In this document: one piece after another, positions 41,452 to 57,628 of the stretch
Layout: every line of letters starts with the position of its first letter
Position numbering within the stretch: position 1 is the first letter of the stretch
Sequence record: NC_094493.1
Source of the DNA: a phage
DNA: 64,000 nt
Direction: 5' to 3' (one strand)
Made by a program: the position numbers and the translations under genes
The notes under the pieces: generated by a model
What the model saw: only the letters and a program-made list of their open reading frames with translations
The model's database searches: none
What the model was told of the DNA's origin: nothing

Positions 41452-41777
41452 CAGAGATCATCATTTCAACTGCAGGGTATGTGTTCCTGACAATCATTGC
41501 ACTGACCATTCTGGTGGTGGTATATGGAATTGTTATTCTCCCTATTCTTGAGACAATTAGTTTGTGTCGGTGTTGGAGAAAGGCTTACGGTCCACAGCCG
41601 TGGAAGGACTGGCCCCACCTGGTGCACATAGCGTTCTCTTATGCTTATGATCACGCCAGCAGTGCATGCATAACCGGGTATCACGCCCACAACTGGAGCT
41701 GGGAAGGGTTGAGGAAATGGAATGTTACAAAGACCATACCTCTGCGCATGTACAAACCTAAAAACAAAGACAGCTGA
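41448..41777 (+). CDS. hypothetical membrane protein
   Basis: 4-nt overlap with upstream gene; N-terminal hydrophobic helix IISTAGYVFLTIIALTILVVVYGIVILPIL. Confidence 0.5.
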   Translation: MTEIIISTAGYVFLTIIALTILVVVYGIVILPILETISLCRCWRKAYGPQPWKDWPHLVHIAFSYAYDHASSACITGYHAHNWSWEGLRKWNVTKTIPLRMYKPKNKDS

Positions 41778-42088
41778 TACTTGAAAATTCCTGGCATATC
41801 AAGTATAAGGGGGATTTCTAAAATGGATTTCCTCCTTTTGATATTTCACCGGGCCGGATATTTTAAAATTCTTAGAAAATCAGAAAATGGATCGAAAACT
41901 AAAATGGATTTTTCAGAGTAGGCGCGACAAGCTGAATAACTCATCCTATCGTTTGCACCATATTCCAGGCCACCATTATAGATTTCCCACACATGCTAAC
42001 CTCCCTCTACTAGAACTTCCTCCACTTACCCTTGACCTTCTATGGTAACAATCTAACCACTATCTTGAAGTTGCGGTGCAGCTTTCCA

Positions 42089-42270
42089 GGTACTCGATCT
42101 ACTTTTCATTTCAGGGCTTGGATTTTCTGAAAATTTTTCTCGATAAATTTCTCAGTACTCGATCTGTTTTTCGTTTTCTGAATCGGATTTTCTGGAAATC
42201 GTTCCGGCTCTCGACCTGAAATTTTTGGGGACGAAATCGATTTTTCGTTTTCAGAAATGGATTTTTAAAA
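42089..42270. repeat. iteron-like imperfect tandem repeats in a 1-kb non-coding gap
   Basis: GTACTCGATCT at 42089 and 42155; GGATTTTCTG(A/G)AAAT at 42118 and 42185; TTTTCGTTTTC at 42160 and 42243; AAATGGATTT four times between 41821 and 42266; unit about 66 nt. Confidence 0.5.
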
Positions 42271-42412
42271 TTTCTATATGGGAATATTTTAGTGGATACT
42301 ATTTTATAGGAAATTGTTACGGAGGGTAATTAGCGTGCTAATTAAATTTATTAAATGCGAGGAGTTCTCATTTAGAATTTTGAATGATAATCATTCTCGT
42401 TTGCAGAATAAC

Positions 42413-42436
42413 GGGCAGGCCCGGTGATTGTCTCCC
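42413..42436. repeat. 24-nt motif GGGCAGGCCCGGTGATTGTCTCCC (copy A)
   Basis: Direct variant CCGGTGGTTGTCTCCC at 42556; inverted 23/24 copy at 51506..51529. Confidence 0.5.
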
Positions 42437-42796
42437 GGCCCCTACTGCCCCGGCTTGTTATTATAGTAACACACAGGACAAAGAAAGCAAGAAGTTTTTG
42501 CATAAATTTTTAGACGATAATGATAATCGTTCTCATTTCATGCAGCGCCCATCCCCGGTGGTTGTCTCCCCCGTCACCGGTGCCTGCCGTCCTTTCGATA
42601 GGTATATTTTGCCACCTGGCGGGGCCGCTGTCAACACTTTTCAAAAAAAAAAAATTCTAACCTGATGCGCTGACCGCTGCAACCTGGCGGGGCCAGCCTG
42701 GCAGGGCCTAACTGACCAGGTAGGAGAGAATGAAGGCTTGCAAACCTGGTGGGCCTATGCTATAGGATAGGTAACAATTGAAGAGGAGGTACAAAA

Positions 42797-42973
42797 ATGG
42801 AAGGTAATATGATCCCCCTGGAAAATGTAGCTATTAATGACGCTGAGGCTATCGCCCTGGTTGAAAAGGCTATGGCGGGAGCGTTGGAACATAAAGAAGA
42901 GTACGAAAAAATGATGGTTAACCTGGCAGGGGCGGCGGCTGGAGAATTCTACCCAAAAAATAATTTTAACTAA
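42797..42973 (+). CDS. hypothetical small protein (58 aa)
   Basis: ATG after GAGGAGG RBS; absent from the ORF track (under 60 aa). Confidence 0.5.
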   Translation: MEGNMIPLENVAINDAEAIALVEKAMAGALEHKEEYEKMMVNLAGAAAGEFYPKNNFN

Positions 42974-42976
42974 TGG

Positions 42977-43005
42977 TTGACAGCTCGGACAGTTCTTGTT
43001 ATTCT
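42977..43005 (+). promoter_or_regulatory. sigma70-type early promoter
   Basis: TTGACA, 17-nt spacer, TATTCT. Confidence 0.5.
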
Positions 43006-43058
43006 TATCCTCGCAAGGTGAACAACACCACACCAATTAACAGAGAGGATAAAAAATC

Positions 43059-43256
43059 ATGAACGCCTACGGAATTAAAGTACGTCGCAACACTCGCCAG
43101 GTGGTCACCAATCAAGTGATTTGCCGGGTGGATGTAACCATCAACAACGGGCAAGGCCTTTATAAATTTCGTCGCGGTCATAGCTATACCCTGCAACAGC
43201 TTAACCGTTGCGCCCTGACAAAAGGTCAGATCAACCACTGGTTTAATAAAAAATAA
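43059..43256 (+). CDS. hypothetical basic protein (65 aa)
   Basis: ATG after AGAGAGGA RBS; K/R-rich. Confidence 0.55.
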   Translation: MNAYGIKVRRNTRQVVTNQVICRVDVTINNGQGLYKFRRGHSYTLQQLNRCALTKGQINHWFNKK

Positions 43257-43258
43257 TG

Positions 43259-43287
43259 TTGACATATGGTCTGACACAAAATACACT
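43259..43287 (+). promoter_or_regulatory. sigma70-type early promoter
   Basis: TTGACA, 17-nt spacer, TACACT. Confidence 0.55.
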
Positions 43288-43319
43288 GAAATCGCAAAAG
43301 ACACTAAGAGGATAAAATC

Positions 43320-43718
43320 ATGAAAACCACTACCTTTAATTTTGATAATGCGGACTTTTCTTTTTCTGATGTCAAGAACTGCCGCCGTGATCGTGGATTT
43401 TACAAGTCTTATAATCTGGTGGGCCTGGACGATGACAATAATTTGCACGAAGTAGCTGAGATCCGGTATTATGCCGCCGCCAGTGGTAACACTCACTACT
43501 GCGTGTTTTGGATTCACGACAACAAGAACAATAAGTACGGTTATACTGGCGGCAAGGCGAGCGGTCACGGTTACGATAAAGCTAACGCAGCACTTGAGAG
43601 TGCATTAAATGCTATGGAGATCACTGCCGACGGCTGGATCTACGAAGAAGAGTTTTTGTCGGCACTTGCTGACCACCTGGGCTATAAAAAGCACATTGTG
43701 ACATGCGCCCACGAATAA
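43320..43718 (+). CDS. hypothetical protein (132 aa)
   Basis: ATG after AAGAGGA RBS. Confidence 0.6.
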   Translation: MKTTTFNFDNADFSFSDVKNCRRDRGFYKSYNLVGLDDDNNLHEVAEIRYYAAASGNTHYCVFWIHDNKNNKYGYTGGKASGHGYDKANAALESALNAMEITADGWIYEEEFLSALADHLGYKKHIVTCAHE

Positions 43719-43724
43719 AAATCA

Positions 43725-43752
43725 TTGACACGCTGCAAAATTTAAGTAAACT
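43725..43752 (+). promoter_or_regulatory. sigma70-type early promoter with 5'-UTR hairpin
   Basis: TTGACA, 16-nt spacer, TAAACT; then GGCGGGAAtgttTCCCGCC hairpin and AAAGGA RBS. Confidence 0.55.
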
Positions 43753-43800
43753 AGACACAAAAGGCGGGAATGTTTCCCGCCAGCACAAAGGAAAAAGATC

Positions 43801-44205
43801 ATGAATAAGAACGTACGCCGCATCATGAACGAACTGGCAAACGATGAAAAAATTATTGACATGCACTTAGTGAACATTTGCCGCCGTTGTGTAACCTATA
43901 ACAACCGCGCCGCAAAAGCGCGTGAGATGAACGCAAAAGGCACCTTAAAGCCCTTCCAGGTGGTGGTAAAGGCCATTAAAGATGTAGCTAATACGGCAAA
44001 CCAGGTACAGGGGAACACCAACGAGAGTACCAATATTGATCCGGCTTACATCATGAAACGGATCCGGACCTGCAAGAACAAAGAGCAAGTGTATAACGTC
44101 ATAGACTGGTTGGATTCCATGGGCGACGTGGTTTATAATAGGTTTTCTGCAGCCATTGAGATCCAGCTAGACAGGTTGGACGGGAAAGTACTAAAAACTT
44201 ATTGA
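43801..44205 (+). CDS. hypothetical protein (134 aa)
   Basis: ATG after AAAGGAAAAAG. Confidence 0.6.
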   Translation: MNKNVRRIMNELANDEKIIDMHLVNICRRCVTYNNRAAKAREMNAKGTLKPFQVVVKAIKDVANTANQVQGNTNESTNIDPAYIMKRIRTCKNKEQVYNVIDWLDSMGDVVYNRFSAAIEIQLDRLDGKVLKTY

Positions 44206-44206
44206 G

Positions 44207-44253
44207 TTTATTTTTAGATGGCCTTGACTCCAGGGCCATCGATAAAGTAAACT
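44207..44253 (+). promoter_or_regulatory. repeated palindrome-bearing promoter element, copy 1
   Basis: TTATTTTTAGATGGCCTTGACTCCAGGGCCATCGATAAAGTAAACT: GATGGCC/GGCCATC inverted repeat brackets TTGACT; TAAACT 18 nt downstream. Confidence 0.55.
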
Positions 44254-44285
44254 AATCTCAGTTAAGCGAAAAAGGGGGCTTTAAG

Positions 44286-44405
44286 ATGGGCACTACACGC
44301 CAATACACAAAGGTAACTATTATCGTCTGCGTTGTCGGTTACATCCTGGCGCAAATGTTAATGAGTAGCGCTAACAGTTTTGCAAAATTTTTCTTAAATT
44401 TTTAA
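44286..44405 (+). CDS. putative small membrane peptide (39 aa)
   Basis: ATG after AAAGGGGG RBS; hydrophobic core VTIIVCVVGYILAQ; downstream of repeat copy 1. Confidence 0.35.
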   Translation: MGTTRQYTKVTIIVCVVGYILAQMLMSSANSFAKFFLNF

Positions 44406-44433
44406 TTGACAAGCTAACTTAGATCGGTATACT
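44406..44433 (+). promoter_or_regulatory. sigma70-type early promoter with 5'-UTR hairpin
   Basis: TTGACA, 16-nt spacer, TATACT; then GGGAAAACTTCCC hairpin and AAGGAGAAAA RBS. Confidence 0.65.
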
Positions 44434-44484
44434 TAAACCCGTAAACGGGAAAACTTCCCAGAACACACAAAAGGAGAAAACACC

Positions 44485-44826
44485 ATGACCACTATGACCG
44501 CCGCAGAAAAAGCTATTCAGGTTGCCGCACTGAAAAAACAGATCGCAGACCTTGAGAACAAGATCGATACCTTTGAAATCGACGAGGACAAGTACGACGA
44601 AAACTATGATGAATGGTTAGACGAGATCTACGGCGAAATCATGATCGGAAACATTTCTTTTCTTCCGTCGCGTATCCTCAAGGAGCTAGATCCTATCGCT
44701 TACCGCTGCGGATTTAGCGACTACATCGACAGCCTGGATATTGAGGACGATGAAGAATACCAGGAATTACAGACAGAGTTAGAAGAAGCAAAAGAAGAGC
44801 TTGCGGAGCTGGAAGAAAACGAGTAA
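44485..44826 (+). CDS. hypothetical acidic coiled-coil protein (113 aa)
   Basis: ATG after AAAGGAGAAAA; E/D-rich. Confidence 0.6.
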   Translation: MTTMTAAEKAIQVAALKKQIADLENKIDTFEIDEDKYDENYDEWLDEIYGEIMIGNISFLPSRILKELDPIAYRCGFSDYIDSLDIEDDEEYQELQTELEEAKEELAELEENE

Positions 44827-44828
44827 GA

Positions 44829-44875
44829 TTATTTTTAGATGGCCTTGACTCCAGGGCCATCAATAAAGTAAACTT
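44829..44875 (+). promoter_or_regulatory. repeated palindrome-bearing promoter element, copy 2
   Basis: Near-identical to copy 1 (ATTATTTTTAGATGGCCTTGACTCCAGGGCCATCAATAAAGTAAACT). Confidence 0.55.
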
Positions 44876-44915
44876 TATACTGTTAACACTGAACTAATGC
44901 ATAGGAGTTAAAACC

Positions 44916-45161
44916 ATGGCAGCACTAATCACCAAATATTATGCCCCTACCAACACCAAAAGCGCCCGTATCATGGTAAAAGGCTTCGGACGTAAAAAGG
45001 TTTACACCTGGGATTATGCCTTAGACACGGAAGACAACTACACCAACGCGATGACAGATTTTATTAATGAGCTGAACACGCGGATCTTGACAAATTATAA
45101 AATTACCGATATTGCCTATATAGGGGAAGGCGGGATCTGTTTTGTCGGTATCGTCAAATAA
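44916..45161 (+). CDS. hypothetical protein (81 aa)
   Basis: ATG after TAGGAG RBS. Confidence 0.55.
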   Translation: MAALITKYYAPTNTKSARIMVKGFGRKKVYTWDYALDTEDNYTNAMTDFINELNTRILTNYKITDIAYIGEGGICFVGIVK

Positions 45162-45165
45162 ACTG

Positions 45166-45212
45166 TTTTTTCGGTGGTCCTGGTAGCAGGGCCATCTATA
45201 AAGATAGTTTAT
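45166..45212 (+). promoter_or_regulatory. degenerate copy of the palindrome-bearing element
   Basis: GGTGGTCCTGGTAGCAGGGCCATCTATAAAGATAGTTTATC shares the GGGCCATC(G/T)ATAAAG core. Confidence 0.35.
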
Positions 45213-45236
45213 CAATACAATGAAAGGAGAAAGTAC

Positions 45237-45590
45237 ATGATCAGCGGGGCAAGTTTTATTATTGGCGCTATTGCTACGGCTTTAATTGTAAACAAGATCC
45301 AATCTAAAAATGAAAAAGAGAGCAACGCGCTCACAGAATACCCATTTTGGGTATTCAACGACAATGAAGACTACATTATCAAGTACAAGAATGAGAAGGG
45401 CGACCAGGTAACACCGCGACCGATCCCAGCTTACAAGATGCAAGAAACACTATACCGCCTAAAGGCTGGAGGCGCAAAAATCGTAGACTTTTGGGGATAT
45501 GATTGCAAGGATCAGGAGGTTATAAAGCGCCGTATCCGGGCTATTCAGGCCAATATTGAAGTTAGCAAGGGGGGAATATATGAAGATTAA
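45237..45590 (+). CDS. hypothetical protein with N-terminal transmembrane helix
   Basis: ATG after AAAGGAGA RBS; ISGASFIIGAIATALIVN hydrophobic N-terminus. Confidence 0.55.
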   Translation: MISGASFIIGAIATALIVNKIQSKNEKESNALTEYPFWVFNDNEDYIIKYKNEKGDQVTPRPIPAYKMQETLYRLKAGGAKIVDFWGYDCKDQEVIKRRIRAIQANIEVSKGGIYED

Positions 45591-45777
45591 TTTTGAGAAG
45601 ATTGTAAAGCGATCTCATGATTCCAAAGAGCTGCCGGAACGACGCCAGCGCAACAATAAACTGAATAAGCCAAAAAGATTTGGGAAGATCTGGCGGAATC
45701 ATTATGATCGTAAATTGCCGGGCCTACTTTTGGAACGTGAACGACAGGCGGAACGATACCGCCACAAAGGCAAATAA
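45580..45777 (+). CDS. hypothetical basic protein
   Basis: ATG after AAGGGGGG; K/R-rich; overlaps upstream stop. Confidence 0.45.
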   Translation: MKINFEKIVKRSHDSKELPERRQRNNKLNKPKRFGKIWRNHYDRKLPGLLLERERQAERYRHKGK

Positions 45778-45785
45778 CAACCAAC

Positions 45786-45812
45786 GCCCCGCCATTGTGC
45801 GGGGCTTTTTTA
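45786..45812 (+). terminator. intrinsic terminator
   Basis: GCCCCGCcattgtGCGGGGC followed by TTTTTTATTT. Confidence 0.7.
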
Positions 45813-45959
45813 TTTCTATCCTACGAATAGCGCCCCTGGTTGGCCCTGTAAACGCCATAAAAGCCCCTACCTATGCAATCCCCTTTCTTAACCTGAAAAC
45901 AGCGTCTAGGGCCGTTTTATGGCGTTAAAAATGTTATTGACAGTGATTTTATTTAAAGC

Positions 45960-45988
45960 TTGACACCTTGGAATAGTCCGGATATACT
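45960..45988 (+). promoter_or_regulatory. sigma70-type early promoter
   Basis: TTGACA, 17-nt spacer, TATACT; second TTGACA 23 nt upstream. Confidence 0.65.
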
Positions 45989-46023
45989 GACCACATCAAA
46001 GCAAGAAGGAAGGAGTAAACGCC

Positions 46024-46284
46024 ATGCGTAAATTGAAAAATTTTGATAAGGTAGATGTAGTACTGAATAATTTTTACTACTGCAATAATAAAGCCGTTTG
46101 GTGGCGTGATAGTTCCACCGATAAAGTTAAGGCGCGCTTTCTCCAAGGGCACTGGCAAGGCCGTCCAGTGATTAAAATCATGGGGCAATTGGTAGCGTTT
46201 AAAAATTGCCGCCGTGTTGATGACGTTGAAGAGATTTTAAGCATTTTGCGCCACAATAATTTAAAAAATAGTGTTGACAAGTAA
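46024..46284 (+). CDS. hypothetical protein (86 aa)
   Basis: ATG after GAAGGAAGGAG RBS. Confidence 0.6.
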   Translation: MRKLKNFDKVDVVLNNFYYCNNKAVWWRDSSTDKVKARFLQGHWQGRPVIKIMGQLVAFKNCRRVDDVEEILSILRHNNLKNSVDK

Positions 46285-46301
46285 ATCTCGATAAGTATAC
46301 T
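46274..46301 (+). promoter_or_regulatory. sigma70-type early promoter with 5'-UTR hairpin
   Basis: TTGACA, 16-nt spacer, TATACT; then GGCGGGAAAACTTCCCGCC hairpin. Confidence 0.65.
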
Positions 46302-46358
46302 TAAACACACAGGCGGGAAAACTTCCCGCCACTAACAAAGAAAATAGGAGAAAATATC

Positions 46359-46982
46359 ATGACCACCGTTAACATTACCACAGGTTACAATTTATCTTTC
46401 GACGTGCTGACCGATGAACAAAAAGAAAAAGCTATTGAAATGGTCCGCGAAAGAGAAGAACACAGCGGGGATAACTTTTTTGCAGAAAGTGTAATTGAAG
46501 ACTATAAAGAACATATCTTTCCAGAGTATGGCCTTGAAGATACCAAGGTACATTGGTCCGGCTTTTGGTGCCAGGGCGACGGCGCGTCAATCAGTGCGGA
46601 AAACGTGGATTTAGAAAAATTCTTGCGTAAAGTCAAGTCTCTGACTAAATTCCGCTCAATTCGTCACTTGTTCGGCACAATGCACGATGGCGAGCTATCC
46701 GCAAGTGTTGAGCGTGATCCATATAGCCGCTATAGTCACGAAAACACTGTAAGCGGGTACATCGATACTACATGGCTAGACCTGACAGCCAAGCAAGAAA
46801 GTAAGGTTGAAGAGCTGGAAGAGCTGATCACCGAGACGGTACGGGAGCTATCCCGCAAGGTTTATGTAGACCTGGAGGAGGCCTATCTTGAACAGTTTAC
46901 TACCGAAAACCTGATCGGCCTTATTGAAGCCAATGATTGGCGGTTTAATGTGGATGAATATGGGGAGATGAGTTTTTCATAA
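46359..46982 (+). CDS. hypothetical protein (207 aa)
   Basis: ATG after ATAGGAGAAAA RBS; largest early-region ORF. Confidence 0.65.
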   Translation: MTTVNITTGYNLSFDVLTDEQKEKAIEMVREREEHSGDNFFAESVIEDYKEHIFPEYGLEDTKVHWSGFWCQGDGASISAENVDLEKFLRKVKSLTKFRSIRHLFGTMHDGELSASVERDPYSRYSHENTVSGYIDTTWLDLTAKQESKVEELEELITETVRELSRKVYVDLEEAYLEQFTTENLIGLIEANDWRFNVDEYGEMSFS

Positions 46983-46990
46983 ATAAAGTG

Positions 46991-47018
46991 TTGCAATAAT
47001 CTAAAAACCTGCTATATT
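46991..47018 (+). promoter_or_regulatory. sigma70-type early promoter with 5'-UTR hairpin
   Basis: TTGCAA, 16-nt spacer, TATATT; then GGGGCgagatgacttGCCCC hairpin. Confidence 0.55.
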
Positions 47019-47071
47019 AAAACTCAAGGGGCGAGATGACTTGCCCCACACAAAACAAAGAGGAAAACATC

Positions 47072-47452
47072 ATGAAAAACACCACCAAGGCTATTGACAC
47101 CGTTATGTTTAACCTGGTTACATTCCGTGAAGATATGAAAGATCTTCCACGTGAAACTGTGTGCGACCATATCGAAAACTATCGCAAACTAATCAAAGAG
47201 TTGCCTTTAAAACGTGACCAATATGCGGCTAACGCTATGCTTAACGCCATGATCAAAAAGATGATTCAGTGTGATTTAACTCTGGCCTATGATTATGCAG
47301 GTGGTCGTTTTGCAGTATACAATCAGCCCGTGCCTGGTATGAGCACCACCGAAGAATTGCACGCGCTCAATCTAAAACAAGATGTGTGGGATAGTATGCC
47401 CCGCGTGGTGGTATGGGTAGAAAGCGGAAAGATTTACGGCGATAATTTTTAA
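47072..47452 (+). CDS. hypothetical protein
   Basis: ATG after AAAGAGGAAAACATC; ORF-track start 47036 lies inside the 5' hairpin. Confidence 0.6.
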   Translation: MKNTTKAIDTVMFNLVTFREDMKDLPRETVCDHIENYRKLIKELPLKRDQYAANAMLNAMIKKMIQCDLTLAYDYAGGRFAVYNQPVPGMSTTEELHALNLKQDVWDSMPRVVVWVESGKIYGDNF

Positions 47453-47462
47453 TCAGGTAACA

Positions 47463-47490
47463 GGCGGCGGCATATTTGCCGCCTTATTGT
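47463..47490 (+). terminator. intrinsic terminator
   Basis: GGCGGCggcatatttGCCGCC followed by TTATTGTT. Confidence 0.55.
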
Positions 47491-47519
47491 TAATCAGAAC
47501 TGTAAAAGAGGTACATAGA

Positions 47520-47891
47520 ATGGAATTTATTATTTTGGCTATATTAGTTGCCTTGTTTAACGCCTGGATCGCTGGCAAGATGGGCAGATCCGCCTTTTTA
47601 TGGTTTATTATATCTATTTTCCTGGGAGTGGTTGCAACTATTGTATTGGTTATCCTTGCAATTGTTGACAAGGGGAATAATAGAAAGGGTAAAGTATTTT
47701 CAGACCTGTACGACGCTCAAACATTTGTCAACGCCTACTACAGCGATCTTCCAGTCTCCCTACGTTGCAGCCTTGCACAACAGGTTTTCGATGAAGCTAA
47801 AACCAGAGATCACGCCCATGAGATTTGTTTAACTGAGGCGGATCGCCTATTTGAGAGGAATAGAAAATATGTGGACCAGCCGTTTAAATAA
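47520..47891 (+). CDS. hypothetical membrane protein (two predicted TM helices)
   Basis: ATG after AAAGAGG; MEFIILAILVALFNAWIAG and FLWFIISIFLGVVATIVLVILAIV. Confidence 0.55.
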   Translation: MEFIILAILVALFNAWIAGKMGRSAFLWFIISIFLGVVATIVLVILAIVDKGNNRKGKVFSDLYDAQTFVNAYYSDLPVSLRCSLAQQVFDEAKTRDHAHEICLTEADRLFERNRKYVDQPFK

Positions 47892-48090
47892 TGCCACGTT
47901 AATTAATCCCTTTAGTGAAGATTTGAAGCCAGCCGCCTGGCGCGATGGATTCAATAACGAAAGCTTTATTTTCAGGCCTGATCTTAAGGAATTTTATAAC
48001 AATGGATCGAACAACGACAGAGATAATTTTTCTTGTAATGTGCGTGGTGATAATACTCCTGGGGGCCATTGCAAACCACGTCACTGCTAA
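47869..48090 (+). CDS. hypothetical protein
   Basis: ATG after GAGAGGAA; overlaps end of upstream gene; frame choice uncertain. Confidence 0.4.
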   Translation: MWTSRLNNATLINPFSEDLKPAAWRDGFNNESFIFRPDLKEFYNNGSNNDRDNFSCNVRGDNTPGGHCKPRHC

Positions 48091-48110
48091 CAGGAGGGAA
48101 GGGGGAGACG

Positions 48111-48230
48111 ATGACAACCAAGGATAAGCCCCGCACCGATAAGGTGCGCCGTGTTATGGTATGGCTTGAGATCATCGCCCTTGAAATATTGTTAGGCGTA
48201 GGGATGTACTTTATCGCTGTAAGTAACTGA
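48111..48230 (+). CDS. putative small membrane peptide (39 aa)
   Basis: ATG after GGGAAGGGGGAG; hydrophobic WLEIIALEILLGVGMYFIAV. Confidence 0.35.
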   Translation: MTTKDKPRTDKVRRVMVWLEIIALEILLGVGMYFIAVSN

Positions 48231-48234
48231 TAAC

Positions 48235-48265
48235 GGCCCCCAATCCCTGGGGGCTTAACTTTTTC
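48235..48265 (+). terminator. intrinsic terminator
   Basis: GGCCCCCaatccctGGGGGC followed by a T-rich run. Confidence 0.6.
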
Positions 48266-48286
48266 AAAAATTTTTCTTCCCGGGTG

Positions 48287-48315
48287 TTGCAATCCGGTCC
48301 GGAATATGGATAATA
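48287..48315 (+). promoter_or_regulatory. sigma70-type early promoter with 5'-UTR hairpin
   Basis: TTGCAA, 17-nt spacer, ATAATA; then GGGGAgcaaTCCCC hairpin. Confidence 0.5.
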
Positions 48316-48366
48316 ACAATCAACGGGGAGCAATCCCCACCACAAAGACTAGAAAGGAGAAACAAA

Positions 48367-48567
48367 ATGAGCAATAATATCCGCGTTATTAACTTCAAAA
48401 AAGAAGAAAAAATTGCCGTGCTGATTGACGGTCAAGAAATCTTTAAAGGTGATTATGAAGATCATCAAACGGCGATTAGTATCACTCGCGTGATTGGTTA
48501 CCACAATTTTTACCCTCAAGGCGCTGAGGCAGCAGTAAAACGAATTAAAGAGATTGTAGGCCTGTAA
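48367..48567 (+). CDS. hypothetical protein (66 aa)
   Basis: ATG after AAAGGAGAAACAAA. Confidence 0.6.
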   Translation: MSNNIRVINFKKEEKIAVLIDGQEIFKGDYEDHQTAISITRVIGYHNFYPQGAEAAVKRIKEIVGL

Positions 48568-48569
48568 AA

Positions 48570-48616
48570 TTTATTTTTAGATGGCCTTGACTCCAGGGCC
48601 ATCGATAAAGTAAATT
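48570..48616 (+). promoter_or_regulatory. repeated palindrome-bearing promoter element, copy 3
   Basis: TTATTTTTAGATGGCCTTGACTCCAGGGCCATCGATAAAGTAAATT, near-identical to copies at 44207 and 44829. Confidence 0.55.
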
Positions 48617-48658
48617 TAAACCCTGTTAAAATAATCAGTGCAAAAAGGAGTAATGATC

Positions 48659-48958
48659 ATGTTTATCCAGGCTAATAATCTTTATTTCTTTGATGGTCAG
48701 ATCGTAGACGGCGTGGAAGTAGAGATCACTGGGTGCCCCGGTGGTCAGGCTATGATGTTCCGTAATAATGCCTTTGATGATCCCTGTATCCTCCTGGCGA
48801 TGGAAGTTACCAAGCTGGATGATAAGAAAACGCTGATTGACTATTCTATTAAAGATCATCCTGATTATCATATGATTCATGGCGATCTGTGTATCGTTGA
48901 CCGTGACAAGGTGGGCGGCATTGTGATCGCTATTGTGAACGATGTTTTCTCTAAATAA
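48659..48958 (+). CDS. hypothetical protein
   Basis: ATG 8 nt after AGGAG; ORF-track start 48638 is GTG. Confidence 0.6.
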   Translation: MFIQANNLYFFDGQIVDGVEVEITGCPGGQAMMFRNNAFDDPCILLAMEVTKLDDKKTLIDYSIKDHPDYHMIHGDLCIVDRDKVGGIVIAIVNDVFSK

Positions 48959-49016
48959 TTCCGGCAAATGATGCAAAATAAGGCCCCTGGCAGGGCCTGC
49001 AGCGATATAATCACAT

Positions 49017-49050
49017 AAAGGCTATGCGGTTGCATGGCCTTTATTATTTT
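49017..49050 (+). terminator. intrinsic terminator (preceded by a second GC hairpin)
   Basis: AAAGGCtatgcggttgcatgGCCTTT followed by ATTATTTT; AGGCCCctggcaGGGCCT hairpin at 48981. Confidence 0.6.
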
Positions 49051-49098
49051 AGCGTTACAGCTGCCCCCAAGGCGCTTAAAAAATTTTTAAAGAAGTAC

Positions 49099-49127
49099 TT
49101 GCATCAAGTCCTACAATATGGATAATA
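49099..49127 (+). promoter_or_regulatory. sigma70-type early promoter
   Basis: TTGCAT, 17-nt spacer, ATAATA; ATATGGATAATA block shared with the 48287 promoter. Confidence 0.5.
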
Positions 49128-49187
49128 AAGGGTGTCGGGGGGCGGTGAGGCCTCCAATCATTAACCAGATAGATAGGAGTTAAAACC

Positions 49188-49472
49188 ATGGCTATTGTTA
49201 CCGTTGGCGATGTAGTAGAAATGGAAGCCAAATACTTAAAAGCGGGTATGCATATCATACGGAATGATCAAGAATTGTTATTAACCATGGTTGAATATAA
49301 TCCCGGTCAGGATTATCCTAGCGTTGACTACTTTTTCCAGTATGTTGATGAAGAATTAAAAGAGGATGAGGCTTATCAGGGTGAATTTTGTAATTTCTTT
49401 TGCCCTGATGAGGTTGTAAAAGTTATTTATCAACCTGGCGTACCTTTCCCGTTGCACGCCATCAATAAATAA
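49188..49472 (+). CDS. hypothetical protein (94 aa)
   Basis: ATG after TAGGAG RBS. Confidence 0.6.
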   Translation: MAIVTVGDVVEMEAKYLKAGMHIIRNDQELLLTMVEYNPGQDYPSVDYFFQYVDEELKEDEAYQGEFCNFFCPDEVVKVIYQPGVPFPLHAINK

Positions 49473-49534
49473 GCCTGGCGGGGCCGAAAAGGCCCCTCCT
49501 GAAATTATGAAAAAATAAAGAGGGGTAAATCATC

Positions 49535-49762
49535 ATGATTGAACAAGTTAAACGCGCCGAGGCTATTAATGGCAATGTGATCTATTTTGTCAGCAAAAAC
49601 GAAAAAGTACCATATGCGGCGGTAATAGTACAGCCTGACGGCAATTATTGGTTTACTGTATACGGATCTTATTCTTTTGGGCGTCCGGTGCATGATAGAA
49701 TTTTGAAAGTAGCGAACCCTACCGGGAAGAATATCACAGCAGAAAAATTTTTTGAAAAATAG
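49535..49762 (+). CDS. hypothetical protein (75 aa)
   Basis: ATG after AGAGGGG; preceded by CCTGGCGGGGCC motif and GGCC...GGCC hairpin. Confidence 0.55.
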   Translation: MIEQVKRAEAINGNVIYFVSKNEKVPYAAVIVQPDGNYWFTVYGSYSFGRPVHDRILKVANPTGKNITAEKFFEK

Positions 49763-49793
49763 TTGACATGACCGTATAAGACTGTAGTATATA
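49763..49793 (+). promoter_or_regulatory. sigma70-type early promoter with 5'-UTR hairpin
   Basis: TTGACA, 17-19-nt spacer, TATA-rich -10 (GTATATA); then GGGGGCaaGCCCC hairpin. Confidence 0.55.
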
Positions 49794-49838
49794 AATCAAA
49801 GGGGGCAAGCCCCACCAACCACAAAGAGGATAAAAACC

Positions 49839-50018
49839 ATGGCTATTATTGCAAAGACCGAGATTGTAGGGTTAGATTCTATTCTCCTGGCATATGAGGA
49901 AGCTATAGAAATGTATGTGGTTTCCTACGGTGAATATATCCGTGAATATAAATCTGTTGATCTAGCTTTTGAATGTTATATTCGCCAGGTCAATAAAGCA
50001 TATGATGATTATCGTTAA
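49839..50018 (+). CDS. hypothetical small protein (59 aa)
   Basis: ATG after AAAGAGGATAAAAACC; absent from the ORF track (under 60 aa). Confidence 0.5.
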   Translation: MAIIAKTEIVGLDSILLAYEEAIEMYVVSYGEYIREYKSVDLAFECYIRQVNKAYDDYR

Positions 50019-50024
50019 AATAGT

Positions 50025-50052
50025 TTGACAACAATTATAAATCGGGTAGAAT
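50025..50052 (+). promoter_or_regulatory. sigma70-type early promoter with 5'-UTR hairpin
   Basis: TTGACA, 16-nt spacer, TAGAAT; then GCGGCAatgaTGCCGC hairpin. Confidence 0.6.
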
Positions 50053-50103
50053 GTATTTCGTAGGGCGGCAATGATGCCGCTCACAACTAGAAGAGGGGTC
50101 ATC

Positions 50104-50298
50104 ATGGCGCTTAAAAAACTAACAAGCAATACTCGTTGGGATGAAATCGACGGGGAAGTTTACATTTTCGCCCGTAAACCAGGGGATCAAAAATGGTCAA
50201 AGGCTTTTACTTGCCACCCTGCAACAATAGACCTGATAAAAAGGGAAGGTCTACGTGAAGCAGTATCAAGAAGCCTACTGATCCCTTGTAAAAAATAG
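50104..50298 (+). CDS. hypothetical protein
   Basis: ATG after GAAGAGGGG; ORF-track start 50071 lies within the 5' hairpin. Confidence 0.55.
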   Translation: MALKKLTSNTRWDEIDGEVYIFARKPGDQKWSKAFTCHPATIDLIKREGLREAVSRSLLIPCKK

Positions 50299-50327
50299 TT
50301 GGACAATACGCGGTTACCTGGTAAAGT
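50299..50327 (+). promoter_or_regulatory. weak sigma70-type promoter
   Basis: TTGGAC, 17-nt spacer, TAAAGT; then GGGCG...CGCCC hairpin. Confidence 0.4.
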
Positions 50328-50379
50328 GTACGACATAGGGCGGGGCAATAAGGCAACGCCCATTAATGAGGGTGGAATC

Positions 50380-50484
50380 ATGTTAGAGAAAATTTTCACG
50401 GTTGTAGTAGTGGGCCTGGCGTTATCGGTTGGAGTAGTTGCAACTATGGCTAACATGATCCTATCTTCCCACGGTATTGGATAA
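50380..50484 (+). CDS. putative small membrane peptide (34 aa)
   Basis: ATG after GAGGGTGGA; hydrophobic FTVVVVGLALSVGVVATMANMIL. Confidence 0.35.
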   Translation: MLEKIFTVVVVGLALSVGVVATMANMILSSHGIG

Positions 50485-50494
50485 GGTGAATCAA

Positions 50495-50710
50495 ATGATC
50501 ACGAATAAAACAGGTAAAACAGAATTTTTACGCGGCTTGCAGATCGGCAAGCCTGAGATCTGGTATTGCACTAAAACACCACGTGACGAAATGAAAGATT
50601 TTACCGCCACGCTGAAGCGGGTAAAGATATCTATCACGCAGAAAAAAGCCTTGATAGTGGTTGAAGGTGAGATCCCCCAAACCGTTGTTATAGTTGAGCG
50701 TACAGCATAG
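50495..50710 (+). CDS. hypothetical protein
   Basis: ATG after AAGGTG; ORF-track start 50477 is TTG. Confidence 0.5.
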   Translation: MITNKTGKTEFLRGLQIGKPEIWYCTKTPRDEMKDFTATLKRVKISITQKKALIVVEGEIPQTVVIVERTA

Positions 50711-50798
50711 TTTAATTTATAGAGATACCTGAAAATTAACCAATAAAGCATAAACAGGCGGTAACCGCCTTAAACGTAGCAGAAAGAGGATAGACACA

Positions 50799-51083
50799 AT
50801 GAAAAAGATGATCGCAGTGGTTGCCCTGGTTGTTGGACTTAATGCGCCTGTAATGGCTAAAGAGCTGGCAAAAGAGGTTAATCTAACGGATATTCATGCC
50901 GTCAATCAAATCGGGGTTACTTATCGCTTATGCCTTGCCGCTAAAACTTTTAATGACGGCACAACAGAGTACTACGGATTCGAGGGTATCCGGTGCGGTG
51001 AGCTTGCTCGCGACCTTAAGGAAGATCCAGATCTGGAAGATCTACCCATCACCGTAAACGGTAAAGCTTACGTAAACCGTTAA
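50799..51083 (+). CDS. hypothetical secreted protein
   Basis: ATG after AAAGAGGA; signal-peptide-like N-terminus MKKMIAVVALVVGLNAPVMA. Confidence 0.6.
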   Translation: MKKMIAVVALVVGLNAPVMAKELAKEVNLTDIHAVNQIGVTYRLCLAAKTFNDGTTEYYGFEGIRCGELARDLKEDPDLEDLPITVNGKAYVNR

Positions 51084-51085
51084 CC

Positions 51086-51220
51086 ATGAGAAAGATAACC
51101 ATCACCTTGGGGATTGTGGTAGCAATACTGGCGCTCTTTCCCCTTATGGTTAGGTATGTGCTGATCAGTGTTGTCCTGATAGTCAGTGATCTATTGGAAA
51201 CGGTTGGCACCTTGTTTTAA
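51086..51220 (+). CDS. putative small membrane peptide (44 aa)
   Basis: ATG 2 nt after upstream stop; hydrophobic ITLGIVVAILALFPLMVRYVLISVVLIV; not in the ORF track. Confidence 0.3.
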   Translation: MRKITITLGIVVAILALFPLMVRYVLISVVLIVSDLLETVGTLF

Positions 51221-51233
51221 AGAGCGATAAAAA

Positions 51234-51425
51234 ATGAATATCGAACAAGTTAGAAAGGTATTAGCGGTACTGCGTTATCATAATCATAGAAAGGTCATAG
51301 ACGATCCTGATTATGTTGATTCAAGCCTGGAAGAGGATACACTACAAGCCATAAGTAACATGCAAGAATTGCTAAAGCGCATGACAGAGAAAAACCGACC
51401 GGACTACATAGGCGAAAAAATATAA
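51234..51425 (+). CDS. hypothetical protein (63 aa)
   Basis: ATG-initiated ORF followed by a terminator. Confidence 0.5.
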   Translation: MNIEQVRKVLAVLRYHNHRKVIDDPDYVDSSLEEDTLQAISNMQELLKRMTEKNRPDYIGEKI

Positions 51426-51441
51426 TATTTATAAACTACAA

Positions 51442-51469
51442 AACAGGGCTTGCAATGGTCCTGTTTTTT
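51442..51469 (+). terminator. intrinsic terminator
   Basis: ACAGGgcttgcaatggtCCTGT followed by TTTTTTG. Confidence 0.7.
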
Positions 51470-51505
51470 GTTATACTTATTCCACGGCAGGCACCTGGCG
51501 ACGGG

Positions 51506-51529
51506 GGGAGACAATCACCGGGCCTGCCT
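51506..51529. repeat. inverted copy of the 42413 motif (copy B)
   Basis: GGGAGACAATCACCGGGCCTGCCT is the reverse complement (23/24) of 42413..42436; preceded by CACCTGGCGACGGGG, which resembles the CCTGGCGGGGCC motif. Confidence 0.5.
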
Positions 51530-51553
51530 GTCATATAAGAACTATAAAAACCG

Positions 51554-51582
51554 TTGACATCTGCCATGGGGTGGGGTAACAT
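51554..51582 (+). promoter_or_regulatory. sigma70-type early promoter with 5'-UTR hairpin
   Basis: TTGACA, 17-nt spacer, TAACAT; then GGGGCaagacgtttGCCCC hairpin. Confidence 0.55.
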
Positions 51583-51640
51583 TTATCTTGAAGGGGCAAG
51601 ACGTTTGCCCCACACAACAACCAGAAGAGAGGAAAACATC

Positions 51641-51913
51641 ATGTCAAGCTGGATTAATCAAGAGGTCGAATCACGTTTTAATGCTATATGGGATCTCATC
51701 GAAAAAGAGGACGGAACATCAAGCCCTTACCTCAATAATCTTGAATTCCATTTTGTGGAAGCGATGAACGCAGAACATGATCACGAAGGTGGTGCGGACG
51801 AGTTCGCTAAAGGGTATGGCTTCAACAATGCCAACGAAATGATCGAGGCGGTTGTACTCCAGGCTGAGGAAGATTATCAATTAAAAACGCTTGAATTCTG
51901 CCGCCGTAAGTAA
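51641..51913 (+). CDS. hypothetical acidic protein
   Basis: ATG after AGAGAGGAAAACATC; ORF-track start 51554 lies within promoter/hairpin. Confidence 0.6.
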   Translation: MSSWINQEVESRFNAIWDLIEKEDGTSSPYLNNLEFHFVEAMNAEHDHEGGADEFAKGYGFNNANEMIEAVVLQAEEDYQLKTLEFCRRK

Positions 51914-51974
51914 TAAGATAATGACACGGGCCAAAAGGCCCACTAAACCAGGACCACATAAAGAGGAAAACATC

Positions 51975-52238
51975 ATGAAACGTCTTGACCAGCTCAAACT
52001 AGTTCAGTACATGGCTTACAGAATTCTTGAAGTCCAAAAAGGTAGCAAAAAAGAAGTTTGCGAGAAAGCGTACAAGATCTTTACTCGCAAAAAAGACGAT
52101 TGGATGTTACGCCAGACTAAAAAGGCTGACATCTTGGGGTACCTGGAAGAAGAGATCCGGCTTGAAGAACAAGAAGAGATCCGCCGTAGTGAGGCAGATT
52201 ATCAGGCAGCTTGGGAAAACTGGATGAGCAACAAATAA
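51975..52238 (+). CDS. hypothetical protein
   Basis: ATG after AAAGAGGAAAACATC preceded by GGGCCaaaaGGCCC hairpin; ORF-track start 51891 is TTG. Confidence 0.6.
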   Translation: MKRLDQLKLVQYMAYRILEVQKGSKKEVCEKAYKIFTRKKDDWMLRQTKKADILGYLEEEIRLEEQEEIRRSEADYQAAWENWMSNK

Positions 52239-52304
52239 TACAACAAGTTACATGGTCAGGGGCAATAAAGCCCCTTGATTACATAAAAATTATGCTATCC
52301 CTTG

Positions 52305-52333
52305 TTGACAGGGATCGGCAGTTTTGCTATATT
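52305..52333 (+). promoter_or_regulatory. sigma70-type early promoter
   Basis: TTGACA, 17-nt spacer, TATATT. Confidence 0.65.
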
Positions 52334-52382
52334 CTTTTTTGAAGGGAAGTTGTAAGAAAATTAACTAAGAGGTAAAAACACC

Positions 52383-52802
52383 ATGAACATTAAATCTGAT
52401 AATCCGGCATATAGCTTTGATAACGCTTTTTGTCACGGTCCGGCGGCGAAAGGATTCGAAATCGATGGTAAACTAGTTATTGTTAATGTTGACGGGGAAG
52501 AGGTTGCAGTATATCCGGTGGCAGACGTTAAAAGCCGTCTACAATGCCGCATGGATGTTACCGCCTATCAGCTTGATCCGGTCCGGGTAGTTGCCCTGGT
52601 CCTGGAAGAAGAAATTAAAGCAATGCACCACAGCAACAAGTTTATTGGTGACGCTCAAGATAATATGCAGGTATGCCGCTATAAAGTTAATGAAGTGCTT
52701 AAAGAGTACGGCTATAAGGATTTAATGATCAAGCGTGATGAAAAATTCCGCTACCGTAACGACCTGGCAAATCGGATTTTTGAAATATACGAATCATTAT
52801 AA
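52383..52802 (+). CDS. hypothetical protein (139 aa)
   Basis: ATG after AAGAGGTAAAAACACC; last plus-strand early gene. Confidence 0.6.
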   Translation: MNIKSDNPAYSFDNAFCHGPAAKGFEIDGKLVIVNVDGEEVAVYPVADVKSRLQCRMDVTAYQLDPVRVVALVLEEEIKAMHHSNKFIGDAQDNMQVCRYKVNEVLKEYGYKDLMIKRDEKFRYRNDLANRIFEIYESL

Positions 52803-52821
52803 TTTTTTAACTGAATTATCA

Positions 52822-52846
52822 AGGGGCTTAGGCCCCTTTCTTTTTG
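52822..52846 (+). terminator. intrinsic terminator closing the plus-strand early block
   Basis: AGGGGCttagGCCCCT followed by TTCTTTTTG. Confidence 0.7.
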
Positions 52847-53565
52847 TCTGCTCTTCCCCCTACCATAAACGGCCCTACCTGGCAAGTGGAATAATTGACG
52901 AGCCATCAATCCCACACACTGTACAAATATACATGTAAAATAGCTATTGCATAACCTTTCATTGTGTGGTAGCAGGGCTATTTTTACCCGTTTTCCCTTC
53001 CAAAATTGCACGTAATGCCGCTATTGCACAAATTTTAACCTGATGCACATCTCCAATATCTTGTCAACAACTAAAAATCTTTATAAGTCATACACTTACA
53101 CAACATAGAAAGCGTGTCCTACGCGAAAAATCGAGTATAACTATAGCCGCCAGATCTCAGAATTCACGTACGCACGCCATTCTATAGCCTGCAAAGTATT
53201 TATTCCAACCACAGAATAACGGAATAGTCAATACCTGCATAAAATAATTATTCGTGTAAACTGCATAACATAAATCAGCTCAGGTGTCAACATTTTTCGT
53301 AAACAGTCCGAAATTATCACGATGAGTTATCATAAACAGAGAAATCTTTAGTCGTCTAATGTTTACTGTACATTACTATACTGACTGGAATCATTAGATG
53401 ACTAAGAGAAAGATAAGAAATAATTAATAATGTGATTATTTTACCTGTAACAATAAGGCAACTATGCAAACGAATGGCATGGCGCGACGGAGTCGCGACA
53501 TAATATAAAAGCAGTAACCATCACCCCCGTGATAGTTTGTCTGCAATCTATTAATCAGATCATAG

Positions 53566-57539: not shown

Positions 57540-57628
57540 AACACACCGATAGCGCTAAAACAGACAAGGCCATCATTAAAGCTTCAGTAAAATCAGTCAC
57601 CCCTCACCTCTTGTTAGTCACTATACTG

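Follow-up and report, generated by a model that had tools for sequence, protein, structure and literature searches.

A typical substrate of Escherichia coli RNase III consists of two helical turns, and internal loops confine its cleavage to one strand, leaving a protective 3' hairpin (PMC1540722). In the T7 site R1.1, the determinants are base pairs of a distal box (UA then UG) and of a proximal box (PMC1540722). A different kind of phage intergenic element is the promoter-early stem-loop (PeSL) of T4-like phages (Arbiol et al. 2010, PMC2839356; Comeau et al. 2014, PMC4122927). A PeSL consists of a terminator stem-loop of the form G(n)-loop-C(n), followed by an A/T-rich tract and then by a near-consensus sigma70 promoter.

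The locus described here lies in a 64-kb stretch of DNA (the window) from an rV5-like Vequintavirus, a phage infecting E. coli, and carries four copies of a short element. Like PeSLs, this element is an intergenic repeat in a hyperplastic region of small ORFs of unknown function, it has a stem-loop and an A/T-rich tract, and indels between close relatives are bounded by its copies, with chimeric elements remaining. In contrast to PeSLs, its match to a promoter is at chance level (9/12, 18-bp spacer) rather than near consensus, its hairpin encloses the "-35" and is not terminator-like, a separate terminator stem-loop is lacking, and its A/T tracts form a second helix by pairing with each other. 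In architecture the element resembles the early RNase III signals of T7. Both are sense-strand intercistronic hairpins of about 50 nt in the polycistronic early mRNA of a coliphage. In both, the lower stem is A/U-rich and 9-10 bp long, the internal loop is asymmetric, the upper stem is G/C-rich with 10 bp including U.G pairs, and the loop has 4-5 nt. However, sequence homology is not detectable between them, the internal loop is 2x3 in the element and about 4x5 in T7, and the copies are near-identical to each other, compared with a mean column identity of 67% for the T7 sites. Unlike T7, the phage is a 137-kb myovirus that relies on the host RNA polymerase throughout. The element is unannotated, and it probably belongs to a known kind, the T7-type processing hairpin.

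Repeat copies and the gene cassettes between them

The original prediction described a 45-bp repeat in three near-identical copies, a degenerate copy and a partial one. The three near-identical copies are real and all on the + strand, at 44208-44252 (no mismatch), 44829-44873 (one mismatch) and 48571-48615 (one mismatch), although the positions first given for them were one base too low; none is expected by chance (100 shuffles). The degenerate copy is also genuine, with 65% identity at 45161-45209 and a match of 72 bits (E-value = 8.5e-14, 45159-45212) to the covariance model of the repeat family (R1). The supposed partial copy near 52955 falls outside the family: it has only the 12-mer TGGTAGCAGGGC in common with the degenerate copy, gives no match to the family model even at E-value<=10, and folds differently from the element. 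A look-alike at 57562 does not belong to the repeat family. No further copies were found in the rest of the rV5 genome or in the E. coli genomes searched, and an Rfam 15 covariance-model scan of positions 41500-54500 returned no match at E-value<=1 except an unrelated, sub-threshold one at 47004.

The inverted repeat first noticed as GATGGCC/GGCCATC exists and is longer, pairing 10 bp (GATGGCCTTG/CAGGGCCATC) including a T.G pair. TTGACT, which had been placed in its loop, is not confined there: TTG is paired in the fold and the loop is ACTC only. A second 10-bp helix pairs the T-rich 5' flank with the 3' flank ATAAAGTAAAC. Since this helix joins both flanks, the unit is 54 nt long, not 45 (Table 1). 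As had been stated, each copy begins at the stop codon that ends the preceding ORF; the next start codon lies 28-43 nt past the 45-mer. All four copies are located in a single early transcription unit of small ORFs, on the coding strand and between + strand ORFs; the rV5 paper assigned the genes around the element to one transcription unit.

Table 1. Coordinates of the element copies, their neighbours and related features (window positions unless a locus is named; R1, family model; R2, T7-site model)
Feature	Position	Strand	Details
Upstream gene of copy 1, stop codon	44203-44205	+	134-aa ORF, TGA
Copy 1, type A	44203..44256	+	fold -26.2 kcal/mol, z -6.6; R1 80.4 bits; R2 19.4 bits
Copy 1, lower stem	44205-44214 / 44244-44253	+	
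Copy 1, internal loop	44215-44216 and 44241-44243	+	UA and GAU
Copy 1, upper stem	44217-44226 / 44231-44240	+	
Copy 1, tetraloop	44227-44230	+	ACUC
Copy 1, predicted RNase III cut	44241..44244	+	after GAU, 3' side of internal loop; from R2 alignment register and T7 cleavage coordinates in T7 folds
Copies 2, 3 and 4, predicted equivalent cuts	after 44864, 45199, 48606	+	from alignment to T7 sites only
Cassette between copies 1 and 2	44257..44823	+	39-aa ORF, promoter, 113-aa ORF
Strong sigma70-like promoter	44406-44433		TTGACA-16-TATACT, within copy 1-2 cassette
Copy 2, type A	44824..44877	+	fold -21.5 kcal/mol, z -5.1; R1 79.7 bits; R2 18.9 bits
Copy 2, neighbours	44485-44826; 44916-45161		begins at TAA of 113-aa ORF (first); 81-aa ORF (second) downstream
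Cassette between copies 2 and 3	44878..45158	+	81-aa ORF (phrog_3199)
Copy 3, type B (diverged)	45159..45212	+	fold -28.2 kcal/mol, z -8.1; R1 72.4 bits; R2 17.4 bits; begins at TAA of 81-aa ORF
Copy 4, type A	48566..48619	+	fold -24.7 kcal/mol, z -6.6; R1 81.3 bits; R2 21.3 bits, E 0.02
Copy 4, neighbours	48367-48567; 48659-48958		begins at TAA of 66-aa ORF (first); 99-aa ORF (second) downstream
CAjan two-tier hairpins	L033:2418-2478 and 2738-2798		

The original prediction further suggested a recombination hotspot for gene cassettes, and a comparison of gene content between copies in related phages bears this out: cassettes have been lost exactly between copies in natural deletions, leaving a single chimeric element. 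The segment between copies 1 and 2 is exactly missing from phiWec189 and from the IMG/VR contig 2051223002_000007 (pairwise blastn), with breakpoints inside the element; a hybrid of the two copies is found at L020:1626-1679, the event being present in loci L020/L010. In phage 241Ecol014PP it is the segment from copy 2 to copy 3 that is exactly missing, and a chimera of these copies (L021:3620-3673) is of type A in its 5' half and of type B at its 3' end. Being near-identical direct repeats of 50 nt, the copies thus serve as substrates of homologous recombination that deletes cassettes.

RNA fold and its conservation

The + strand RNA of the element forms a 54-nt hairpin with two stems of 10 bp each, a lower one of A/U and an upper one of G/C with G.U pairs; a 2x3 internal loop separates them, and a tetraloop closes the upper stem. 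An earlier proposal of a DNA element pairing with itself was right about the self-pairing, but the pairing is that of RNA and extends over 54 nt. The fold energies lie between -21 and -28 kcal/mol (z between -5 and -8). The opposite strand folds more weakly because of the G.U pairs, at -12 to -16 kcal/mol; in copy 3 it reaches just -12.7 kcal/mol. No other single hairpin of the early region is as strong as the four copies.

Base pairing is retained in 98.8% of the paired positions of the four copies in the window, with four compensatory pairs. We extended the comparison to 49 copies (40 distinct sequences) from 13 phage loci plus this window. Pairing was 98.0% (800 cells, 40 distinct sequences), again with compensatory changes at four pairs, and double-change cells numbered 33 against 11 +/- 4.8 in shuffles; as a control, slid registers gave just 33-58% pairing. 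The asymmetric internal loop, 2 nt on one side and 3 nt on the other, is present in 49/49 copies. Copy 3 has CTGGTA where the others have TTGACT, yet the two-helix fold is kept; its upper stem contains two G.U pairs and its lower stem is re-paired. The exchanges in type B (A-U to G-U, C-G to U-G and U-G to C-G) are such that pairing survives solely in the + strand RNA. Within Vequintavirus, the changes in the upper stem are one-sided (wobble) only, and no double compensatory change was found there. Among 31 distinct type A copies, hardly any variation is seen in the upper stem or in loop bases A and C, a constancy beyond what a generic dsRNA substrate needs. This invariance could reflect recent duplication or gene conversion, sequence-specific recognition by a protein, or a secondary role as a promoter.

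Comparison with T7 RNase III sites and competing explanations

We built a covariance model (R2) from seven T7 RNase III sites only (R0.3, R0.5, R1, R1.1, R1.3, R4.7 and R18.5) and searched the window with it. The four copies are the best four matches; each is aligned over its full length without gaps on the + strand, and the scores run from 17.4 to 21.3 bits (highest for copy 4). The E-values are singly marginal (0.02-0.18), and the four matches amount to one or two independent observations because they are copies of one another. Elsewhere, over about 190 kb of non-T7 phage DNA, no match rose above 15 bits; the highest were 14.8 bits in the rest of the window, 14.7 bits in a 5.2-kb CAjan locus, 13 bits in the remaining 83 kb of rV5 and 12.7 bits in 40 kb of Justusliebigvirus alia. 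A held-out true T7 site, R6.5, scored 23.9 bits. The helix length of RNase III signals (about 20 bp, two turns) is found in all four copies as 10 + 10 bp, an internal loop interrupts the helix (4x5 in the T7 consensus), and the element is intercistronic and on the transcribed strand, within a polycistronic phage mRNA. In the register chosen here, type A has U.G at pair 8 of the upper stem like R1.1, but C-G instead of A-U at pair 7, and type B has C-G at pair 8 without U.G, the box positions being ambiguous from PMC1540722. The U.G at pair 8 occurs in three of the seven T7 sites.

On balance we lean towards an RNase III-type intercistronic processing or stability hairpin, rather than a promoter. 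The element, which would act in cis, lies directly after stop codons in the polycistronic sense-strand early mRNA of rV5-like phages and forms an interrupted hairpin of about 20 bp; its two helices, each about one turn long, flank the small asymmetric internal loop in the T7 style. From this architecture and the alignment to T7 sites we infer that host RNase III would bind the hairpin and cut a single time, 3' of the internal loop at a position predicted to follow GAU. The upstream cistron would thereby retain a protective 3' hairpin and the downstream cistron would become a separate mRNA, so that adjoining small early genes may gain independent stabilities. Against this reading speak the smaller internal loop, the partial match to the R1.1 boxes, the marginal E-values, and an upper stem that is near-invariant in type A and changes on one side only.

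All of the structural evidence would fit equally well a functional RNA hairpin with another reader. The hairpin may be a passive barrier to 3'-5' exonucleases after cuts elsewhere, e.g. by RNase E in the A/U-rich spacers, or a site where a phage- or host-encoded RNA-binding protein regulates the adjoining cistrons. The near-invariance of the type A upper stem and loop, together with distal and proximal boxes that are only partly canonical (PMC1540722), speaks for such a reader. However, an exonuclease barrier does not need a two-helix layout with an asymmetric loop in the register of T7 sites, strict sequence recognition is at odds with type B, whose loop and stem sequence differs yet is conserved at its own site, and the T7-site model singles out the four copies. 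We consider another reader rather unlikely. Much less probable is a selected function at the DNA level, that of a PeSL-like linker repeat promoting gain and loss of small-ORF cassettes by homologous recombination. It would account for two different natural deletions bounded exactly by copies with chimeric elements left, for the position in a hyperplastic small-ORF region, and for a cassette gene (the 81-aa ORF) common to unrelated phage families; PeSLs do behave in this manner (PMC2839356). Recombination, though, requires sequence identity only, and leaves unexplained the strand-specific G.U pairing, the compensatory changes in the lower stem and the conserved internal loop. Moreover, the diverged type B copy survives despite being a poor recombiner, and copies do not flank the other indels of the region (48960/48971 and 45937-45942). 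We read recombination at the copies as a by-product, not as the selected function.

An operator-controlled promoter, as originally predicted, is equally hard to credit. It would consist of the sigma70 hexamers TTGACT-18-TAAACT with a T-rich UP-like tract and the -35 inside an operator palindrome, and would allow regulated re-initiation before each downstream gene. Type A copies do offer 5/6 and 4/6 hexamer matches with an 18-bp spacer, TTGAC is conserved with a variable sixth base, and the spacing to the next start codon (33-43 nt) is suitable. Dual use is conceivable too, as the T7 record places the minor E. coli promoters B, C and E close to the RNase III coordinates used. Nevertheless, a 9/12 match is at background level: 52 sites reach the scan threshold (>=9/12) in the surrounding 13 kb, against 32 +/- 5.6 in shuffles, while the evident phage promoters match 10-11/12 with 16-17 bp spacers, one of them just 150 nt downstream of copy 1. 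The match is lost in type B, where CTGGTA (3/6) is kept in 10 phages with every base pair retained. The variable C/T of the "-10" covaries with a base 48 nt upstream (GC 15, AU 11, GU 8), the "spacer" is invariant, and the G.U wobbles leave the DNA palindrome imperfect, pairing in the + strand RNA only. The constraint pattern tracks base pairing and not the -35/-10 hexamers, contrary to a sigma70 promoter, and the element is absent from the promoter annotation of the rV5 authors. The proposed coupling of termination with re-initiation is likewise unsupported, because no U-tract comes after the hairpin. An intrinsic (Rho-independent) terminator or attenuator after each upstream ORF, to which a G/C-rich 10-bp stem directly 3' of the stop codon might point, is the reading to which we give least credence. 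With GAUAAAGUAAAC as the 3' flank and the T-run on the 5' side, a U-tract follows the hairpin on neither strand, and a terminator scan did not call the element (3' flank GAUAAAG) though it called others nearby, e.g. 45786-45805.

The 81-aa gene in other phages

Homologues of the 81-aa gene, which lies between copies 2 and 3, were found in Seuratvirus and, with weak similarity (35% identity over aa 3-50, E-value = 1e-4), in a T7-like Klebsiella phage. Their surroundings speak for the RNase III-type reading. The Klebsiella homologue is preceded by a T7-type site scoring 40.5 bits with the T7-site model, which also starts at the upstream stop codon. The homologue of Seuratvirus CAjan has two-tier hairpins on both sides. 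Like the element, these begin at stop codons; their lower stem is of A/U, the internal loop is small, and the upper stem comprises 10 bp including G.U pairs. Their lower stem AGUUU...AUAAGCAAACUAAU resembles AGUUU...AUAAAGUAAACUAAU of copy 1, whereas the upper-stem sequences are unrelated; the CAjan hairpins gave no match with the family model and no significant match with the T7-site model. A search of IMG/VR for the lower-stem pattern returned rV5-like and Seuratvirus examples only.

A speculative extension, which we consider improbable, is that the hairpin marks the boundary of a mobile early-gene cassette crossing phage families, small genes such as the 81-aa phrog_3199 gene travelling together with RNase III-type hairpins that abut stop codons. 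If so, the hairpins would insulate a gene post-transcriptionally in any E. coli-type host and at the same time supply homology for insertion and excision, as an RNA-processing counterpart to the promoter-terminator cassettes of PeSLs.

The 81-aa gene is flanked by hairpins in the rV5-like myovirus and in the siphovirus CAjan, and preceded by one in the T7-like podovirus.

Four copies of a hairpin-forming element

The palindrome-bearing 45-mer occurs on the + strand in three near-identical copies, none being expected in shuffled sequence; the original prediction had these right except for coordinates that were one base too low. A repeat search likewise recovers its diverged fourth copy. The proposed "partial copy" near position 52955 has to be dropped: it shares only a single 12-mer with the diverged copy, exhibits a different fold and gives no match to the family model at E≤10. 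Nor is a look-alike at 57562 related to the element. As had been noticed, the stop codon of the upstream ORF marks the beginning of every copy. The following start codon lies 28-43 nt past the 45-mer.

The window shares 93-96% identity with rV5-like coliphages (genus Vequintavirus), and the element region corresponds to rV5 ORFs 179-194, within a long series of small ORFs, all on the + strand, which the rV5 authors put in one transcription unit. No known function was found for the flanking proteins. Sigma70 promoters are annotated nearby in the rV5 record, for instance the equivalent of TTGACA-16-TATACT at 44406-44433; the element itself is neither annotated there nor mentioned in the rV5 genome paper.

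The + strand RNA of all four copies folds into a single long hairpin of about 54 nt, with folding energies of -21.5 to -28.2 kcal/mol and z-scores between -5 and -8. Folding is far weaker on the opposite strand (-12.7 to -16.5 kcal/mol), because wobble pairs turn into A.C mismatches. In the diverged copy (type B; the other three are type A), CTGGTA stands in place of TTGACT, three upper-stem differences preserve pairing through G.U, and the lower stem is re-paired. Type B has the most stable fold among the four, and this copy, previously termed degenerate, is the most informative of them. Across the four copies 98.8% of cells are paired, with both sides changed in four pairs; sliding the partner by 1-3 columns reduces pairing to 35-56%. 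The selected feature is very probably a structure of the sense-strand RNA.

Positions and parts of the hairpin element, and other features of the region
Feature	Position	Description
Copy 1 (type A)	44203-44256	45-mer at 44208-44252, 0 mismatches
Copy 2 (type A)	44824-44877	45-mer at 44829-44873, 1 mismatch
Copy 3 (type B)	45159-45212	repeat match at 45161-45209, 65% identity
Copy 4 (type A)	48566-48619	45-mer at 48571-48615, 1 mismatch
Lower stem		10 bp, A/U-rich; T-rich 5' flank paired with ATAAAGTAAAC
Internal loop		2 nt / 3 nt
Upper stem		10 bp, G/C-rich; GAUGGCCUUG/CAGGGCCAUC, one U.G pair included
Apical loop		tetraloop
66-nt repeat	44406-44471; 46274-46339	74% identical
Direct repeats (families D2, D7)	42080-42265	three repeats, ~47-57 nt, spacing 65-74 nt
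Probable terminator hairpin	48995-49060	13-bp hairpin ATAAAGGCTATGC/GCATGGCCTTTAT, then TATTTT
5'-UTR/RBS motif (families D4, D6, D15)	47041-47077; 49807; 51605; 54204; 43298; 51953	GCCCCACACAAAACAAAGAGGAAAACATCATGAAA and variants
Stretch lacking long ORFs	~52940-55200	no ORF of at least 90 aa

Conserved pairing and recombination between copies

Blastn places the element in Vequintavirus only, where 120 records have it, as a rule at three type A places each. The remaining 83 kb of rV5 contain no extra copies. As 5,426 E. coli genomes lack it, the element is not a host REP-like sequence. No relevant family came out of scanning the early region against Rfam, and an IMG/VR scan with the conserved 3' core returned 18 loci, in which only the rV5-like ones carry the element, the other 15 being chance matches.

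With a covariance model we gathered a comparative set of 49 copies, the homologous region being taken from 12 further phages or contigs. Pairing is retained in 98.0% of its 800 cells, and double changes number 33 where column shuffles give 11 ± 4.8. Four pairs covary in the lower stem; the changes in the upper stem are all wobble exchanges. Variable sites cluster at three places: loop positions 3-4, the opening base of the 3' internal loop, and the lower stem's foot. Mean column identity is 0.90-0.97 in the element, slightly above that of the 120-nt flanks on either side (0.87-0.93).

The original prediction read the 45-mer as an operator-controlled promoter. The proposed TTGACT-18-TAAACT scores 9/12, which is at chance level: sites at or above this threshold of the scan number 52 in the surrounding 13 kb, versus 32 ± 5.6 in shuffles, and promoters evident in this region reach 10-11, their spacers being 16-17 bp. 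Since, in addition, the -35 hexamer is gone in type B and the constraint follows the pairing, we find nothing to support selection for promoter function. The variable base of the supposed -10 (TAAACT/TAAATT) changes in concert with one lying 48 nt upstream (G-C 15, A-U 11, G-U 8), which is beyond what a promoter model explains; the type A copies may have weak incidental promoter activity. A transcription terminator fares no better, the U-tract after the hairpin being missing on both strands and a terminator scan leaving the element uncalled.

The suggestion that the copies act in recombination is supported by cassettes that are missing between them in relatives, with hybrid elements left behind. 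The 621-bp unit from copy 1 to copy 2 is missing from phiWec189 and from an IMG/VR contig, which have one hybrid element instead, and the 335-bp unit from copy 2 to copy 3 is missing from 241Ecol014PP. The element of the latter joins a type A 5' half to a type B 3' end, and this chimerism accounts for its two lower-stem mismatches. Other indels of the region do not end at copies. Such chimeric elements give a direct view of 50-nt repeats driving cassette loss in the variable early region. We regard this recombination as a consequence of repeat identity, not as the selected function. The same behaviour is exhibited by the promoter-early stem-loops (PeSLs) of T4-like phages (PMC2839356, PMC4122927), the defining features of which, a near-consensus promoter and a separate terminator stem-loop, are missing from the element.

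Likeness to the RNase III sites of T7

T7 sequence was folded around its RNase III site coordinates, which we take to be those of Dunn and Studier (1983). R0.3, R0.5, R1, R1.1, R4.7 and R18.5 exhibit an internal loop 3' of a G/C-rich upper stem of 9-10 bp, with an A/U-rich lower stem in five of the six (90-nt minimum-energy fold), and R1.3 is a nearly continuous helix. In all seven sites the upper helix has the cleavage coordinate at its 3' foot. The alignment consensus has helices of 9 bp and 10 bp, separated by a 4x5 loop.

We used a covariance model, built from these seven T7 sites alone, to search the entire window with filtering disabled. The four copies themselves take the first four places among its matches, all ungapped and full length on the + strand, with scores of 21.3, 19.4, 18.9 and 17.4 bits (E-values of 0.02-0.18, individually marginal, the matches not being independent). 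The next match in the window scores 14.8 bits. The control maxima are 13 bits in the other 83 kb of rV5 and 14.7 bits in a 5.2-kb locus of phage CAjan; 40 kb of Justusliebigvirus alia contain no T7-type hairpins, the model peaking there at 12.7 bits. R6.5, a T7 site outside the training set, was recovered at 23.9 bits. The copies clearly rank above background.

Two helical turns are typical of the substrates of RNase III from E. coli, and internal loops limit the enzyme to a single phosphodiester, so that a protective 3' hairpin is left (PMC1540722). Judged from the alignment register, RNase III would cut after GAU, at 44243/44244 and equivalent positions. On the best explanation, somewhat more likely than not, the element serves as an RNase III-type intercistronic hairpin for the processing and stabilisation of early mRNA. 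Hairpins of this kind are well known from T7; the present one is unannotated and absent from Rfam, and we found nothing in the literature on Vequintavirus concerning RNase III or transcript maps.

Copies 2 and 3 enclose an 81-aa gene with homologues in Seuratvirus siphoviruses (43-47% identity) and weaker ones in T7-like Klebsiella phages. The early-region homologue of Klebsiella phage phi1_146030 has a T7-type site in front of it (40.5 bits, E = 3 × 10-8), and this site starts where the gene upstream has its stop codon. In CAjan, two-tier hairpins (-18.8 and -21.3 kcal/mol) flank the homologue on both sides, again beginning at stop codons; their lower stems resemble those of the rV5 element, whereas the upper stems are unrelated. 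An IMG/VR pattern search for the lower stem with a free upper stem returned 77 loci, with the two-tier fold in rV5-like phages and Seuratvirus only, and therefore demonstrates no wider family. A long nested hairpin of repeated TAGGGT/ACCCTA units (-27.7 kcal/mol) occupies an intergenic gap of the CAjan locus (L033:4760-4830) and is the best match to the T7-site model there (14.7 bits).

The rV5-like phages are widely isolated and are in use for E. coli O157 biocontrol and in therapy cocktails. To our knowledge, their early gene expression is known solely from promoter and terminator predictions. If the hairpins are RNase III sites, mRNA processing in the style of T7 would also occur in a large myovirus dependent on the host RNA polymerase, unequal levels of adjacent tiny early genes on one transcript would be accounted for, and annotators would gain a reason not to label the motif a promoter.

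Other features of the region

The 66-nt repeat consists of a near-consensus sigma70 promoter, TTGACA-16-TATACT, followed directly by a short 5'-UTR stem-loop (CCCGTAAACGGG / GGGAAAACTTCCC). It is nearer in spirit to the PeSLs than the element is, but its stem-loop lies downstream of the promoter. A further difference in cassettes is that phage MiataMamis carries a 540-bp insertion with three small ORFs (45937-45942 versus L022:5233-5776), which sits between a terminator at 45786-45805 and a promoter at 45960 and is not bounded by the hairpin element.

The early ORF run is closely preceded by the D2/D7 direct repeats, which adjoin a G/C-rich, strongly folding stretch (42400-42800) and are possibly an origin or a regulatory array. 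Justusliebigvirus alia has annotated repeat_regions at a comparable position (L032:18302-18569).

A probable intrinsic terminator, the hairpin at 48995-49060, supplies the T7-site model with its matches 5 and 6. Directly upstream of it, at 48960/48971, many relatives have an extra 351-nt ORF that is absent from the window. The 5'-UTR/RBS motif precedes several early ORFs. The stretch lacking long ORFs, which separates the last + strand early ORF from the convergent genes, corresponds to the "non-coding" box of the rV5 map, and an Rfam scan up to 54500 gave no match.

About 20 GenBank records (MG0656xx, "Campylobacter phage C5, D1, A142 ...") are labelled as Campylobacter jejuni phages. They are 92-97% identical to rV5-like coliphages across the element region, and their host labels look doubtful.
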